Positions 5,744 to 10,917 of a stretch of DNA of 64,000 nt are shown here, one piece after another. The stretch covers positions 15,219 to 79,218 of the forward strand of contig JAFAKN010000131.1 of assembly GCA_019235415.1 (NCBI GenBank), written 5' to 3'. Position 1 is the first letter of the stretch, and every line of letters begins with the position of its first letter. The position numbers and the translations under genes are program-made. The stretch comes from Alphaproteobacteria bacterium (lineage in GTDB: Bacteria > Pseudomonadota > Alphaproteobacteria > Reyranellales > Reyranellaceae). A model generated the notes under the pieces. It saw nothing but the letters and a program-made list of their open reading frames with translations, was not told the DNA's origin and made no database searches.

Positions 5744-6580
5744 ATGCGCAACTATCGACATATCGAGGTGAGGCCGGTGGCCGGCGCCTTGGGCGCCGAG
5801 ATCATGGGCGTCGACATGGCGCGCGAGCTCGAGGCCGATGTCGTGGCCGAGGTCAGGCAGGCCTTCCTCGACCACCTCGTCATTTTCCTGCGCAACCAGA
5901 AGGTCACGCCGCCGCAGCAGCTGGCCTTCGCGCGCCGCTTCGGCGAGCCGATCGAGTATCCGCAGCTGAAGGGCCTAACCGAGGCGCCGATGATCACGCC
6001 GGTGGTCAAGCTCGAGCATGAGCGCAGCAACTTCGGCGGCATCTGGCATTCCGACACGACCTACCTGCCGCAGCCGCCGATGGGCAGCATGCTGCTGGCC
6101 CGCGAGGTGCCGCCGTTCGGCGGCGACACGATGTTCGCCAACCAGTATCTGGCGTATGAGGCGCTGTCGGATGGCCTCAAGGAAACCCTCGAAGGCCTGG
6201 TGGGCGTAAGCTCGTCGGCCAAGGCCGACGTGTCGAAGACGCGCGAGGATCGCCTGAAGGCGGCCGGCGTCGAGCTCAAGGTGCTGACCGCCGAGCACCC
6301 CATCGTGCGCACGCATCCCGAGACCGGCCGCAAGGCGCTCTACACGTCGGCAGCCCATACCGCGCACTTGGCCGGCTGGACCGAGAAGGAGAGCCTGCCG
6401 TTGCTGCGGTTCCTGTGGGAGCACCAGGTGAAGCCTGAGTTCACCTGCCGTTTCCGCTGGGAGGTAGGCTCGCTCGCCTTCTGGGACAACCGCTGCGCCA
6501 TGCACAACCCGATCAACGATTATCACGGCTACCGCCGCGTGATGCATCGCATCACGCTGGCCGGCGACCGGCCACGTTAG
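5744..6580 (+). CDS. TauD/TfdA family 2-oxoglutarate/Fe(II) dioxygenase
   Basis: GALGAEI, WHSD (HxD), GGDTMF, WDNRCAMH. Confidence 0.92.
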   Translation: MRNYRHIEVRPVAGALGAEIMGVDMARELEADVVAEVRQAFLDHLVIFLRNQKVTPPQQLAFARRFGEPIEYPQLKGLTEAPMITPVVKLEHERSNFGGIWHSDTTYLPQPPMGSMLLAREVPPFGGDTMFANQYLAYEALSDGLKETLEGLVGVSSSAKADVSKTREDRLKAAGVELKVLTAEHPIVRTHPETGRKALYTSAAHTAHLAGWTEKESLPLLRFLWEHQVKPEFTCRFRWEVGSLAFWDNRCAMHNPINDYHGYRRVMHRITLAGDRPR

Positions 6581-8234
6581 CCGCCAACGCCTCCCGCGAG
6601 ATTTTTGGAAAAAGCGGCGGAGGCAGCTTGATCGGGCGCCCCGCCGGTATGGCGCACAAGTCCTCTCGCGCTCTGTCCGGCCATGCCACTCGGTCGATAC
6701 CATCACCAAGGCATTGCAATACTTCGGCCGCGGCGAAGGGGATGAAAGGCCAGCCCACAAGGGCGGCGAGGCGAACCAGATTGATGCCGGTTCGTGCGAT
6801 CGCGGCGGCACGCGGCGGATCTTGCTTGATCGCCGACCAGGGAGCGGCGTGCGCCAGATAGGCGTTGGCGAGCTTCCAGATGGACCTCACTTCGTCGGCG
6901 GCCTTGCGGAAGGCGAGGGCCTCGTGATGGGCGCGCAGGTGCGCGAGGTGCCGGTCGAGGGCCGCGGCCAGATCACGCTCGCTCGCGCCGCCTGCGCCGC
7001 CGTCCGGCACCTTGCCGTCGAAGCGGTTGGCGACGAACGACAGGCAGCGGTTCACGAGATTGCCGAAGGTGTCGGCCAGGTCCTTGTTGATGCCGTCGAC
7101 GAAGCGCTCGACGGTGAAATCGACGTCATCGCCTTCGGGCGCATTGGCGGCGAGCCACCAGCGCCAGGTGTCGGCCGGCAGGAGCTCGAGGGCCCGGTCG
7201 GTGAAGATCCCGCGGCCCTCGCTGGTCGAGAACTTGCCGCCTTCGAAGGTCAGCCAGTTGAAACCCTTGATGATGTCGACGCGCTTCAGCGGCAGGCCCG
7301 ATCCCAGGAGCGTGGCGGGAAAGCTGACGGCGTGGAAGGGGACGTTGTCCTTGGCGAGGAACTGCAGGTAGCGTACCTCGTCGCCGCCCTGCCACCACGC
7401 GCGCCAGTCGCGTCCGGGCGCCTGTTCGGCCCATTCGACGCCGGCGGCGATGTAGCCGATCGGCGCATCGAACCAGACATAGAACACCTTGTCCGCGAAG
7501 CCGGTCTTGGGCACCGGCACGCCCCACGTCAGATCGCGCGTGATGCAGCGGTCGCGCAGTCCTTCGTCCAGCCATTTGCGCGCGATCGATTGAACCAGCG
7601 GCGGCCAGTCGTGACGCGCATCGATCCAGCAGCGCAGCCGGCCCTCGAACGCGGCAAGTTTCAGGAACAGGTGTCGAGTCTCGCGGAACTCGATGTCGCG
7701 GGCACCGGAGATCGCCGACCGCGGTTCGCTCAGCTCGTGCGGGTCGATCAGCCGCGTGCAGCTCTCGCACTGATCGCCGCGCGCGGCTGGATGGCCGCAA
7801 TGTGGGCAGGTGCCGATCACGTAACGGTCGGGCAGGAAGCGCCTGTCGGTCGGAGAATAAGCCTGTCGCAGGGTGCGTTCTTCGATGTAACCGGCGGCAT
7901 CCAGGCGCGCGAAGATTTCCTGCGTCAGCCGATGGTTCGCAGCGCCTGAGGTGCGCGAGAAATGGTCGAACGACAGGCCGAAGCGGCGATAGATTTCGGC
8001 CTGGATCATGTGCTGGCGCGCACAGTAATCGGCCACCGGCAAGCTTGCGGCGGCGGCGGCCAGCTCGGCCGGTGTGCCGTGCTCGTCGGTGCCGCACAGG
8101 AACAGCACGTCGTGGCCGGTCTGCCGGCGAAAGCGCGCATGGATGTCGGCGGGCAGCAGAGAGCCCGCGAGATTGCCGAGATGCTTTACGCCGTTGACGT
8201 AGGGAAGGGCGCTGGTGATCAGGAACTTGGTCAT
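6552..8234 (-). CDS. metG: Methionine--tRNA ligase
   Basis: ALPYVNGVKHLGN (HIGH-like), GTDEHG, Zn knuckle CPHC..CESC, YVWFDA, KFSTS (KMSKS-like). Confidence 0.95.
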   Translation of the reverse strand: MTKFLITSALPYVNGVKHLGNLAGSLLPADIHARFRRQTGHDVLFLCGTDEHGTPAELAAAAASLPVADYCARQHMIQAEIYRRFGLSFDHFSRTSGAANHRLTQEIFARLDAAGYIEERTLRQAYSPTDRRFLPDRYVIGTCPHCGHPAARGDQCESCTRLIDPHELSEPRSAISGARDIEFRETRHLFLKLAAFEGRLRCWIDARHDWPPLVQSIARKWLDEGLRDRCITRDLTWGVPVPKTGFADKVFYVWFDAPIGYIAAGVEWAEQAPGRDWRAWWQGGDEVRYLQFLAKDNVPFHAVSFPATLLGSGLPLKRVDIIKGFNWLTFEGGKFSTSEGRGIFTDRALELLPADTWRWWLAANAPEGDDVDFTVERFVDGINKDLADTFGNLVNRCLSFVANRFDGKVPDGGAGGASERDLAAALDRHLAHLRAHHEALAFRKAADEVRSIWKLANAYLAHAAPWSAIKQDPPRAAAIARTGINLVRLAALVGWPFIPFAAAEVLQCLGDGIDRVAWPDRAREDLCAIPAGRPIKLPPPLFPKISREALAANVAGRRPA

Positions 8235-8258
8235 GGGTCTCTCCGCGAGTGCAGACGC

Positions 8259-8284
8259 AAAAAAGCCCTTCGCGCGGAAGGGCT
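8259..8284 (-). terminator. Intrinsic terminator (attenuator) in metG leader
   Basis: Minus strand AGCCCTTC-CGCGC-GAAGGGCT followed by a T-run, 24 nt upstream of the metG ATG. Confidence 0.85.
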
Positions 8285-8317
8285 GGAGAGACCGATCGAG
8301 CGTCTATGGCGCGCGCG

Positions 8318-8386
8318 TCAGCCTGCAGCCCCAACCGGACGAAGGGGCCGGCGCATTCGCAGAGAAGGTGCGCGCGTGGTGAGCAT
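8318..8386 (-). CDS. Putative metG leader peptide MLTTRAPSLRMRRPLRPVGAAG (22 aa)
   Basis: Short ORF between a sigma70-like promoter and the terminator; Met codon 11 lies 4 nt before the first pairing segment. Confidence 0.65.
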   Translation of the reverse strand: MLTTRAPSLRMRRPLRPVGAAG

Positions 8387-8393
8387 GCAAGCG

Positions 8394-8422
8394 ATGTAGG
8401 TGCACGCGGGGCGCGGGTCAAT
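8394..8422 (-). promoter_or_regulatory. Sigma70-type promoter for the metG leader
   Basis: ATTGAC-N17-CTACAT, one mismatch per box to the rhizobial RpoD consensus CTTGAC-N17-CTATAT; leader ATG is 7 nt downstream. Confidence 0.7.
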
Positions 8423-8461
8423 GGCTGGCGCGCCGTTGGCGCATCCCGAGCAAGACACTCT

Positions 8462-8526
8462 ATCACCCGAGCGTAGCGAGGGACCTTTCTTGCTGCCCCA
8501 AGGGTCCGCTGACGCTCGGGATGACA
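8462..8526. repeat. REP-like palindrome family A (degenerate copy)
   Basis: ATCACCCGAGCGTAGCGAGGGACC ... GGTCCGCTGACGCTCGGGATGACA. Confidence 0.8.
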
Positions 8527-8573
8527 ACCTCGGCAAACCCATGATGCCCGTCGCCTGAAATAATATCGGCCGA

Positions 8574-8602
8574 TTGACATTGTCTATCGATCGATATTAA
8601 TT
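8574..8602 (+). promoter_or_regulatory. Promoter with palindromic operator upstream of the TetR-RND operon
   Basis: TTGACA-N17-TTAATT; perfect palindrome TATCGATCGATA at 8585-8596 in the spacer. Confidence 0.6.
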
Positions 8603-8620
8603 GACCTAAACGGTGAGACC

Positions 8621-9340
8621 ATGAGCATCACGACCCTGCGCCACCGGCCCGGCACCTACCTGCGCGGCGAGGAGACCCGCCGGCGCATCCTCGGCACCGC
8701 GCTCGAGATGTTCGCCGAGCAGGGTTACGAGGCCACCAGCACGCGCCTTCTCGCGGAGCGGGCGGGGGTCAACCTGCCCGCCATTCCGTACTACTTTGGC
8801 AGCAAGGAGGGCCTCTATCGGGCCGTCGTCTCGTTCTGCGTCGAAGAGAGCGAGGCCTTCATGGCGCCGGTCACCGCCAAGGCGCTGGCGCTCCTCGAGA
8901 AGAAGGGCACCACGAGCGAGGAACTGATTGACGCGCTGTGCTCGATCCTCGAACGCTTCGTGGTGCTCGTCTCGCGCGGCGAGGAGGTCGAGGCGCGACG
9001 GCTGTTGTGGGCGCGCGCTGAGGTCGAGCGCACACCGGTCCTCGTGCGCCTCCAAGAAGAGGGACGCCGGCAGATTTTCGAGCCCTGCGCCGCCCTCATA
9101 GGCCGTCTGTTCGGGCGTGCGCTGGACGATCCGGCAACCATACTGCGAACGCTCGCCGTGTTCGGCCAGGCCACGATCTTCTGCCACACCACCGTGCAGC
9201 AGATCCTCGGCGAGGCGACGATCGGCGAAGATCGTGTCGCCGCAGTGTGTGCGCTGGTGCGCTCGCAGACCGAGGCCATTTTGCGCGCAGCGCTGGCCGG
9301 CAAGGCCGCAGTCGCGAAACCAAGGGGCAGCAGGAAATGA
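8621..9340 (+). CDS. TetR family transcriptional regulator
   Basis: N-terminal HTH ILGTALEMFAEQGYEATSTR..AGVN...YYFGSKEGLY. Confidence 0.9.
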   Translation: MSITTLRHRPGTYLRGEETRRRILGTALEMFAEQGYEATSTRLLAERAGVNLPAIPYYFGSKEGLYRAVVSFCVEESEAFMAPVTAKALALLEKKGTTSEELIDALCSILERFVVLVSRGEEVEARRLLWARAEVERTPVLVRLQEEGRRQIFEPCAALIGRLFGRALDDPATILRTLAVFGQATIFCHTTVQQILGEATIGEDRVAAVCALVRSQTEAILRAALAGKAAVAKPRGSRK

Positions 9341-10917
9341 CGAGCGCGTCGCAGGCGACCCGGACGACGTGGCGTCTGGGGCGAGCCGCCTTGGCGCTCG
9401 CCGCGCCGATGGCGGTCGCGGCGATGGTGACGGCCTGCACCGTCGGGCCGGACTTCAAGTCGCCGGACAAGCCCAGCGTCGAGGGCTACACGCCGGAAAA
9501 CCTGGTGCCGCGCACCTCATCGGCGCCGGTCCATGGCGGCGAAGCGCAGTCGCTGATGCTGGGCGCCGACGTTCCAGGCCGCTGGTGGGAGCTTTACCAT
9601 TCCGGTGAGCTCGACCAGCTGGTCGAGCAGGCGCTGCGCGCCAATCCCGACCTGGACGCCGCGCAAGCCGCCCTGCGGCAGGCGCGCGAGCAGCTCTACG
9701 CCCAGCAGGGCGCATTGTTTCCTACGATCAGCGGCAATTCCGGCGCCACGCAGCAGCTGCAGAGCGGCAATCAGTTCGGCCAGCCGAGCTTTACCTCGCA
9801 GTTCGGCGTGACGACGGCGTCGCTCAGCGTCGCCTACGCACCGGACCTTTGGGGCGGCGTGCGCCGGCAGGTCGAATCGCAGGCCGCGCTGGCGGAGTAC
9901 CAGCGCTTCCAGCTCGAGGCCGCCTATCTCACCTTGACCGCCAACGTGGTGGTCGCGGCCGTCAATCTCGCCTCGCTGCGCGGCCAGATCGCCGCGACCG
10001 AGGTCATCATCCGGCTGCAGACCGACGGGCTGCGGCTGGTGCAGGAACAGTTCACCATGGGCGGCGCCTCGCGCGCCGACGTGCTCGCCCAGCAAGCGAG
10101 CCTGGCGCAGACTCAGGCGACGCTGCCACCCCTGCAGAAGCAGCTCGCGCAGCAGCGCAACCAGCTCATGCGTTACCTCGGCCTGGCGCCGACCGAGGAT
10201 GCCGGGCAGGGCCTGCAGCTGGAAACCCTGCAGCTGCCCAAGGACCTGCCGCTCAGTCTGCCCTCGCAACTCGTGGAGCAGCGACCCGACGTCCGTGCTT
10301 CGGAGGCGCAGCTGCATTCGGCGAGCGCCAATATCGGCGTCGCGACGGCCGCCCAGCTGCCGCAGTTCAACATCACCGGGCAGCTGGGTACGGCATCGCT
10401 GGGTGTCGCCTCCATGTTCGGGCCTGGCACCGCCTTCTGGAGCCTCGGCGTCAGCGCCGCGCAGACCCTGATCGACGGCGGGCAGCTCGAGCACAAGAAG
10501 CGGGCCGCCGTGGCCGCTTTCGACCAAGCGGCGGCGAGCTATCGCGGGATCGTGCTCTCGGCGTTCCAGGACGTCGCCAATGCGCTGCGGGCGTTGCAGT
10601 CCGACGCCGGGGCGCTCACCGCCGCTGTCGCGGCAGAGCAGGATGCCGAGCAGAGCTACGCTCTGTCGCAGCAGCAGTACCAGGCCGGCGCGATCAGTTA
10701 CCTGACGCTGTTGAACGCGCAGCAGACTTACGAGAACGCCCTCATCAACCGCGTGAAGGCGCAAGCGGCCCGCTACAGCGACGTGGCTGCCCTGTTCGAG
10801 GCGCTGGGCGGCGGCTGGTGGCACCGAGCCGACGTCGATCCCAAATCGTTGGGCAAGCCGGACATCTTCTGGCTGCCGCCATTTCAGGACGTGCACCTGC
10901 CGCGCTCGGGACACTGA
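9337..10917 (+). CDS. RND efflux outer membrane lipoprotein (NodT/OprM family)
   Basis: Lipobox VTAC then TVGPDF; DLWGGVRR, QRPDVRASE; start overlaps TetR stop. Confidence 0.9.
   Translation: MTSASQATRTTWRLGRAALALAAPMAVAAMVTACTVGPDFKSPDKPSVEGYTPENLVPRTSSAPVHGGEAQSLMLGADVPGRWWELYHSGELDQLVEQALRANPDLDAAQAALRQAREQLYAQQGALFPTISGNSGATQQLQSGNQFGQPSFTSQFGVTTASLSVAYAPDLWGGVRRQVESQAALAEYQRFQLEAAYLTLTANVVVAAVNLASLRGQIAATEVIIRLQTDGLRLVQEQFTMGGASRADVLAQQASLAQTQATLPPLQKQLAQQRNQLMRYLGLAPTEDAGQGLQLETLQLPKDLPLSLPSQLVEQRPDVRASEAQLHSASANIGVATAAQLPQFNITGQLGTASLGVASMFGPGTAFWSLGVSAAQTLIDGGQLEHKKRAAVAAFDQAAASYRGIVLSAFQDVANALRALQSDAGALTAAVAAEQDAEQSYALSQQQYQAGAISYLTLLNAQQTYENALINRVKAQAARYSDVAALFEALGGGWWHRADVDPKSLGKPDIFWLPPFQDVHLPRSGH

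Follow-up and report, generated by a model that had tools for sequence, protein, structure and literature searches.

A candidate ribosome-dependent attenuator with a single invariant methionine codon in the metG leader of Reyranellaceae and other Hyphomicrobiales

We analyzed the leader of metG, the gene for methionine--tRNA ligase (methionyl-tRNA synthetase, MetRS), in a stretch of 64,000 nucleotides (nt) from a bacterium of the Reyranellaceae (contig JAFAKN010000131.1, positions 15,219 to 79,218), which we refer to as the window. A preliminary description of this DNA had proposed a methionine-sensing attenuator at this site. We consider it probable, with some reservations, that the leader is a ribosome-dependent transcription attenuator that sets metG expression by the supply of charged elongator Met-tRNA. 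This judgement is based on the comparison of sequences from 25 distinct loci, the window included, in which an equivalent leader lies directly 5' of metG. Common to these sequences are a conserved reading frame, an invariant CGA-AUG-C, a constant placement of hairpins and a terminator; a characteristic promoter geometry and, in one clade, a helix between an anti-Shine-Dalgarno (anti-SD) sequence and the Shine-Dalgarno (SD) sequence of metG can also be read from them.

The proposed mechanism follows the classical arrangement of four segments, of which 1 and 2 form a hairpin (1:2), 2 and 3 an antiterminator (2:3), and 3 and 4 an intrinsic terminator (3:4). The transcript would begin on the A of the leader ATG, or right beside it, and would be a leaderless mRNA; a ribosome would translate its leader of 22-26 codons. 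When Met-tRNA is plentiful, this ribosome would reach the stop codon, which abuts segment 2, and would cover that segment, so that 3:4 forms and polymerase halts before metG. If the leader were left untranslated, 1:2 would form and 3:4 would again terminate transcription. When Met-tRNA is scarce, i.e., when methionine or MetRS activity is low, the ribosome would wait with the AUG in its A site and the CGA in its P site; it would then cover segment 1, and segment 2 with its flanks would pair with the 5' arm of the terminator, allowing read-through into metG. In the Reyranellaceae clade only, pairing of the anti-SD probably keeps leaked transcripts poorly translated when the terminator is folded. 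In this way metG transcription would respond, by feedback, both to the supply of methionine and to the activity of MetRS. Stalling at the AUG, antitermination, and limitation for Met or MetRS as the signal are the steps that we infer.

The leader features of the window, taken singly, are near the expectation for chance in GC-rich DNA. The leader frame forms the last part of an open frame that is 74 codons long (8318..8542), a scan for terminator-like sites found one where shuffled sequences gave 0.6 +/- 0.8, and hairpin 1:2 alone has a z-score of -0.5 in the window. A scan for promoters of the Escherichia coli consensus type passed none, which reflects the rhizobial type of the -10 element: its sequence, CTACAT, fits the rhizobial consensus, CTATAT. 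The complete leader folds better than its shuffles (z = -3.2). We regard the features of the window as more than chance because they are kept in the 24 other loci.

These loci represent four named Hyphomicrobiales families: Reyranellaceae, Bradyrhizobium, Xanthobacteraceae and Stappiaceae (the NCBI taxonomy places Reyranella and Vineibacter within Hyphomicrobiales). The carriers are Reyranella and Vineibacter (L001-L009, L203-L205, L211), Bradyrhizobium (L011, Bradyrhizobium murdochi; L115; L201, B. japonicum; L209), Xanthobacteraceae-like bacteria (L016, L127, L206, L207), Stappiaceae (L013) and two further carriers (L012, L137). We compared two clades, namely the Reyranellaceae clade, with 14 leaders, and a Bradyrhizobium/Xanthobacteraceae/Stappiaceae (BXS) clade, with 11. 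A genome search with the MetRS protein of the window identified its source as a relative of Reyranella and Vineibacter (72-78% amino-acid identity). Among the 16 best-matching metG loci, the leader is present in all 13 that are alphaproteobacterial (L001-L009, L011, L012, L013, L016), whereas the remaining three (L010, L014, L015), which belong to metagenome-assembled genomes (MAGs) of Acidobacteriota, Acidimicrobiia and Parcubacteria, are without it. It is likewise absent at metG of Caulobacterales, Rhodobacterales, cyanobacteria and others (L010, L014, L015, L017-L080). Additional leaders were taken from contigs of homologous MetRS proteins (L201, L203-L207, L209, L211) and from a scan of metagenomes (L115, L127, L137) with the pattern CGAATGC-N-GCGCG-N-CYCTTCC, which is blind to genes. 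The pattern is too loose: at least 120 stretches matched, and among the matches listed there were three true leaders, all three of them before metG. The sequence of the window itself was found only in soil and rhizosphere DNA metagenomes.

We also used covariance models, each derived from a single clade. Model R1, from the Reyranellaceae clade, recovers 11/11 BXS-clade leaders (E = 1e-7 to 8e-3), and model R2, from the BXS clade, recovers 14/14 Reyranellaceae-clade leaders (E = 4e-8 to 2e-4), these E-values being rough. Neither model found anything significant at 66 other metG loci or in the rest of the window. Because the recovery is reciprocal, both clades constitute one family, a result that is independent of the text pattern. 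A match of R2 at 7011-7125 of L115 was rejected as a second leader, since it is the terminator of rpmE (ribosomal protein L31). Matches of R2 on the reverse strand in L016, L127, L206, L207, L209 and L013 were false positives on the leader terminators, whose hairpins have an A-tract 5' and a U-tract 3', the shape of a two-way terminator. The gene 5' of the leader varies by locus (TetR, penicillin amidase, SpoU, glyoxalase or DUF1192), and the leader therefore travels with metG. In the window this gene encodes a TetR/CecR-like regulator and is divergent from metG (8621-9340, plus strand); the leader terminator therefore does not belong to an upstream gene.

A short open reading frame (ORF) with a usable start signal, either leaderless or an SD followed by GTG, precedes metG in 25/25 loci. 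In all 14 leaders of the Reyranellaceae clade, TTGAC (TTGAT in L203) is equally spaced from the leader ATG, and the -10 elements of the relatives (CCATAT, CAATAT, CGATAT, GCATAT, GCATAG or GCATAA) lie 6-8 nt before it. This leaderless geometry, TTGAC-N17-(-10)-N6-8-ATG, occurs in the Reyranellaceae clade and in L013 and L137. The ORF of Bradyrhizobium starts with GTG, 7-8 nt after AGGAGA or GGGAGA, and is thus SD-led; an SD appears in exactly those lineages that are without the leaderless geometry.

The frame itself is also conserved. The in-frame start lies 9, 10, 11, 13 or 14 codons before an internal Met codon, length changes are multiples of 3, and every ATG located 27-48 nt 5' of the Met codon is in frame. 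Internal stops are found in 0/25 leaders in frame 0, in 18/25 in the +1 frame and in 5/25 in the +2 frame. In each of the 25 leaders the stop follows the Met codon at a fixed distance, which is 11 codons in the Reyranellaceae clade and 12 in the BXS clade, while its identity varies (TGA 20, TAG 4, TAA 1); its context is UGA-C or UGA-U in 20/25. Bradyrhizobium leaders have indels of 1-2 nt right after the stop, never before it. The N-terminal sequence of the leader peptide is not conserved, as one would expect where it is translation as such that counts and not the peptide. We infer from this coding signature that the leader ORF is translated.

It might instead be supposed that the leader is an untranslated structure, either a riboswitch or an operator for MetRS or tRNA-Met, that recognizes CGAAUGC, and that the ORF is a by-product of GC-rich DNA. 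Stops are rare in such DNA, as the 74 open codons in the window illustrate, the invariant block of seven nt lies in a region of little predicted pairing, and synthetase genes are often regulated by T-boxes or by binding of their own enzyme to the leader. However, a by-product would not be expected to keep start and stop in frame in every leader, to change length only in steps of three, to exchange one stop codon for another at a fixed position, or to acquire an SD in precisely the lineages whose geometry is not leaderless. By eye, the leader sequences have no conserved UGGN bulge and no CAU anticodon-like loop. Searches with Rfam (the whole window and seven related loci at gathering thresholds, and 8100-8750 at E-values up to 10) found no match on the leader, and no T-box matched in the window or these seven loci. 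No S-adenosylmethionine (SAM) or S-adenosylhomocysteine (SAH) riboswitch matched in the leader; the sole sub-threshold SAH match, at 8421-8523, has 14 bits against a gathering threshold of 37 (E = 6.3), is located 5' of the predicted transcription start and is probably due to chance. We therefore think an untranslated leader unlikely.

The preliminary description had placed the stalled ribosome at an internal Met codon, Met11 in the window. This codon is conserved in 25/25 leaders of the four families, always in frame with start and stop, and is the sole internal Met codon in 22/25. In every leader it is embedded in CGA-ATG-C (alignments A1, A2, A3). In the 25 linked metG genes, CGA accounts for 6.9% of Arg codons, yet it is the Arg codon that precedes the Met codon in all 25 leaders. 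The cognate regulatory codon 5' of metG is thus one invariant internal AUG in each leader, and a tandem codon run is absent. In E. coli, CGA is decoded through an inefficient inosine-adenosine wobble, and termination at UGA is slow when a C follows. These two properties, the second by prolonging the masking of segment 2, may compensate for there being only a single codon. We also inspected by eye a DNA palindrome at CGAATGC, which is not conserved.

The invariance of the whole heptamer raises the further idea that CGAAUGC is more than a Met codon. It might be read as RNA by tRNA-Met or MetRS, constituting an alphaproteobacterial sensor of tRNA or synthetase, of a non-T-box kind, laid over a translated frame. 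In a milder version of the idea, CGA-AUG might be a purpose-built codon pair, in which the poor inosine-adenosine wobble in the P site would make selection of Met-tRNA in the A site rate-limiting; if this is true, one codon does the work of a codon run in classical attenuators. We consider these ideas speculative and rather improbable.

Another possibility, to which we assign a similarly small probability, is that the leader is translated and its terminator is conditional, but that the signal is something other than Met-tRNA, e.g., ribosome availability, translation speed, slow decoding of CGA or nascent-peptide arrest, and that the Met codon is conserved for some other reason such as RNA pairing. 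The CGA and the following C are, after all, as invariant as the AUG, and a single codon is a weak sensor. Moreover, in the alignment of the Reyranellaceae clade, RNAalifold pairs the GCGC that comes right after the AU with a conserved GCGC past the stop, so the motif may be partly structural. However, Bradyrhizobium leaders (AUGCCCC) are without this GCGC pairing and still keep CGA-AUG-C, the controlled gene is always metG, and the sole invariant sense codon is the cognate one. Peptide arrest in particular is disfavored by the lack of conservation of the residues before Met, which would be in the exit tunnel during the arrest.

The placement of hairpin 1:2 across the family fits the attenuator layout that was originally proposed. 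Hairpin 1:2 fills the interval from Met to stop in 25/25 leaders; the start of its 5' arm is 3-10 nt (median 5) downstream of the A of the AUG, and its 3' arm ends -2 to 7 nt from the stop. Given this placement, arm 1 would be covered by a ribosome waiting at the AUG and arm 2 by one that has reached the stop. The arms are specific to clades: GGCCCC/GGGGCU, CCGCCCC/GGGGCGG, CCGUGCC/GGCAUGG, CGUCCCG/CGGGACG, CCGGCC/GGCCGG and CCGGCCCGACC/GGUCCGGCCGG. Pairing of segment 2 to the 5' arm of the terminator is available in almost all leaders. In the window, 8323-8331 pairs with 8280-8288 (9 nt, 89%), and an extended antiterminator, in which 8330-8346 pairs with 8266-8282, takes up nearly the whole terminator hairpin. 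When the window RNA is masked to Met+12, it folds as an antiterminator (-42.4 kcal/mol, z = -2.8). The equilibrium probability of the terminator is 0.00-0.06 with the ribosome at Met versus 0.72-1.0 with the ribosome at the stop in the window, L001, L003, L004, L005 and L006, i.e., in 6 of the 14 Reyranellaceae-clade leaders.

In the BXS clade, segment 2 (CGGAAGGGUU) ends at the stop codon and is a near copy of terminator arm 4. It can form 10 base pairs (bp) with arm 3, and 89% of cells are paired, versus 22-55% when slid. Overall, pairing potential is conserved, with 86-90% of cells paired versus 22-55% when partner columns are slid. A small helix within the antiterminator, P2, is 91% paired in the BXS clade and weak in the window.

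All 25 leaders have a terminator, of 7-11 bp with a U-run, between the leader ORF and metG. It is stronger in the BXS clade (10-11 bp), and the divergent terminators of L012 and L205 show compensatory changes together with matching changes in segment 2. In the window, the 8-bp hairpin has arms that are 100% complementary and a 5-nt loop. metG begins ~25-50 nt past the T-run (30 nt in the window; 191 nt in L207), and because the 30 nt in the window leave no room for a promoter, this essential gene in the usual case depends on read-through of the terminator. The long spacing in L207 is due to a GC-rich repeat of ~150 nt (GGGGAGAGGG... arms), at ~820-1000, that is inserted between terminator and metG (191 versus ~45 nt); the spacing is therefore not critical in its clade.

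Such elements might in principle have no regulatory role, the ORF being an independent small gene or the terminator being constitutively leaky and lowering metG transcription by a fixed factor. The BXS-clade terminators do look like strong terminators of the usual two-way kind, and they also give scores on the opposite strand. But the invariant Met codon, a hairpin 1:2 exactly between Met and stop, and a copy of arm 4 at the stop would all be superfluous, and they are kept across four families; we regard this explanation as very unlikely.

Several observations weigh against attenuation by Met-tRNA and must be considered. There is only a single regulatory codon, whereas 2-7 or more are usual in classical attenuators. 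Simple codon sensing does not account for the invariance of the CGA or of the C that follows the AUG, which could reflect direct recognition of the RNA. Since fMet-tRNA is required to initiate the leader, a severe shortage of MetRS could also lead to super-attenuation. The preliminary description had expected covarying 1:2, 2:3 and 3:4 pairs in related leaders; the potential to pair is indeed kept, but covariation is weak, and in fixed-column pair counts compensatory changes in the BXS clade are not above shuffle controls. In RNA folding, the switch is seen in the six Reyranellaceae-clade leaders mentioned above, but the energies of 1:2 and 2:3 are not clearly better than those of dinucleotide shuffles (mean z = -1.06 and -0.45). 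Applied to a MAFFT alignment of 17 leaders from across the family, RNAalifold recovers the terminator alone, because the register of hairpin 1:2 differs from clade to clade. Equilibrium folds keep the terminator at any ribosome position in the BXS clade, and partly in Vineibacter; antitermination in the BXS clade would therefore have to be kinetic, as in classical attenuators. Finally, equilibrium folding predicts the metG SD to be paired in every modelled state.

This last point concerns the anti-SD:SD helix. Positions 8285-8296 of the window are complementary to the SD and start codon of metG at 8233-8244 (12 nt, 92%), and the fold of this region (8232-8300) has a z-score of -4.16. The helix is predicted in 14/14 Reyranellaceae-clade leaders, with z-scores from -1.3 to -5.1 in 13/14, and is absent from the BXS clade. 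The anti-SD consists of 9-12 nt directly 5' of the terminator, and the flanking sequences covary between leaders, e.g., GGUCUCUCC/GGAGAGACC, AUCGAGCUCUCC/GGAGAGUUCGAU, UCUCUCCGGCC/GGCCGGAGAGA, CCUCC/GGAGG and AAUUCCUUCGGC/GCCGGAGGAAU. The antiterminator overlaps the CUCC core of the anti-SD. Our expectation was that the metG SD would be free in the antiterminated conformer; equilibrium folds do not support it, as they pair the SD in all states. For this reason we can only suggest a role for the helix, which may lower the translation of mRNAs that have escaped termination or may offer a kinetic window. Together with a leaderless leader ORF, such a helix, by sequestering the SD, would amount to a second, translational layer that is open to dissection.

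The positions of the individual elements in the window, as read directly from its sequence, are collected in Table 1. The promoter, leader ORF, Met11, segments 1-3, terminator and T-run all lie where the preliminary description had put them. Its list of features, while real, lacked the invariant CGA, the wider antiterminator and the anti-SD:SD helix.

Table 1. Elements of the metG leader and metG in the window, in the order in which they are transcribed
Element	Position	Strand	Remarks
-35 element ATTGAC	8417..8422	-	17-nt spacer to -10 element
-10 element CTACAT	8394..8399	-	7 nt 5' of leader ATG (8386-8384)
Leader ORF, 22 codons + TGA, MLTTRAPSLRMRRPLRPVGAAG	8318..8386	-	probably leaderless
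Invariant CGA-ATG-C (Arg10, Met11, first base of codon 12)	8353..8359	-	proposed sensing site
Internal Met codon (Met11)	8354..8356	-	within leader ORF
Segment 1, 5' arm of hairpin 1:2, CCGGCCCC	8344..8351	-	GGCCCC 8349-8344, 4 nt past Met codon
Segment 2, GGGGCTGCAG	8323..8332	-	3' arm of 1:2 and 5' strand of antiterminator 2:3; GGGGCTG 8332-8326
Leader stop TGA	8318..8320	-	context TGA-C; few nt from segment 2
Spacer with conserved GCGCG and small hairpin P2	8297..8317	-	nested in antiterminator; alignments A2, A3
Anti-SD ATCGGTCTCTCC	8285..8296	-	directly 5' of terminator; complementary to metG SD region
Segment 3, terminator 5' arm AGCCCTTC	8277..8284	-	includes part of CAGCCC 8285-8280
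Segment 4, terminator 3' arm GAAGGGCT	8264..8271	-	also able to pair with CTTCG 8343-8339 in extended antiterminator
Terminator T-run	8259..8263	-	terminator tail TTTTTGCGTC
metG Shine-Dalgarno region GGAGAGACC	8236..8244	-	partner of anti-SD
metG, methionine--tRNA ligase, 560 aa	6552..8234	-	TIGR00398 profile match (466.7 bits, cut-off 336)

Leader-peptide attenuation is textbook knowledge for Trp, His, Phe, Leu, Ile/Val and Thr, and the preliminary description knew of no Met-codon example on metG. Our searches of Rfam 15, NCBIfam 20 and the full-text literature agree, having found no description of a Met leader-peptide attenuator, although most subscription journals were outside the search and an older description is possible. 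Five leader peptides have no NCBIfam match at E-values up to 10, and six exact leader peptides have no occurrence in a collection of ~15 billion proteins. The entries listed in supplements of B. japonicum differential RNA sequencing (dRNA-seq) include no metG, metS or bll1504, the last of these names being a guess from synteny.

The closest functional analogue of the metG leader is the pheST attenuator of E. coli. Here too, a synthetase gene lies behind a translated leader (pheM) with cognate codons, alternative hairpins and an intrinsic terminator, and is subject to feedback from tRNA charging. However, pheM is SD-led and has 5 Phe codons in 14, whereas the metG leader is mostly leaderless and has a single Met after an invariant CGA. 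The two leaders have no sequence similarity, and they differ in lineage and amino acid. The trpL and his attenuators of E. coli and trpL of Sinorhizobium meliloti share with the metG leader the 1:2/2:3/3:4 layout, a stop adjoining segment 2 and the expectation of super-attenuation without translation; they differ in serving biosynthetic operons with tandem codons, where the metG leader serves a synthetase with one codon and, in one clade, adds the anti-SD:SD helix. The Met T-boxes of metG/metS in Firmicutes resemble the metG leader in that an AUG triplet in the leader reports the charging of tRNA-Met and controls a terminator before the MetRS gene. T-boxes, however, are untranslated and bind uncharged tRNA directly, whereas the metG leader has a coding signature and no T-box match. 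To our knowledge, Alphaproteobacteria are without T-boxes.

That ribosome-dependent attenuation operates in Alphaproteobacteria is known from trpL/rnTrpL of S. meliloti (PMC6614838). In mycobacteria, leaderless poly-Cys upstream ORFs at the 5' end of transcripts act as amino-acid-responsive attenuators of the downstream genes (bioRxiv 10.1101/834739). These have runs of Cys codons and belong to cysteine metabolism genes of Actinobacteria, and the likeness noted here is one of outline. Compared with these systems, the unusual traits of the metG leader are its one codon, the fixed CGA context, the leaderless start and the added anti-SD helix.

If attenuation by Met-tRNA is confirmed, it would answer the question of how the sampled alphaproteobacterial families match the level of MetRS to demand, including in Bradyrhizobium, which is genetically tractable and agronomically important. 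The leader would also be a compact built-in reporter of Met-tRNA charging, and it would make it possible to ask, in a natural setting, whether attenuation can be driven by one sense codon whose neighbors, the rare CGA on its 5' side and the base on its 3' side, are fixed.

Some further observations concern the surroundings of metG. At its 3' end, metG shares 29 nt (6552-6580) with the 3' end of a convergent plus-strand ORF that ends at 6580, so there is no terminator between the two; in L203, L204 and L211 this ORF corresponds to a TauD-family dioxygenase gene whose overlap is likewise 29 nt. In the Reyranella MAG L006 (from 2501), the metG frame breaks after 24 codons, though tblastn aligns residues 1-546; the interruption is probably a frameshift or an assembly error. 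On the opposite strand, ~770 nt 5' of B. japonicum metG, the Rfam small RNA BjrC1505 is found (L201, 593-732, minus strand, 133.9 bits); it has no connection with the leader.

In the window, an element (8442-8523) between the TetR-type gene and the promoter of the leader is similar to repetitive extragenic palindromic (REP) sequences and contains the nested inverted repeats CATCCCGAGC/GCTCGGGATG (10 nt, 100%) and CCCGAGCGT/ACGCTCGGG. Just before the TetR/CecR-like gene there is a 22-nt inverted repeat (8558-8602, 82%) with the core palindrome TATCGATCGATA, which is kept in L203 and is probably the operator of this regulator. L203, the closest relative, is without the REP-like insertion of ~125 nt, and its operator runs straight into the -35 element. 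The TetR/CecR-like gene is followed by a gene for a NodT-type outer-membrane efflux protein (9247-10917).

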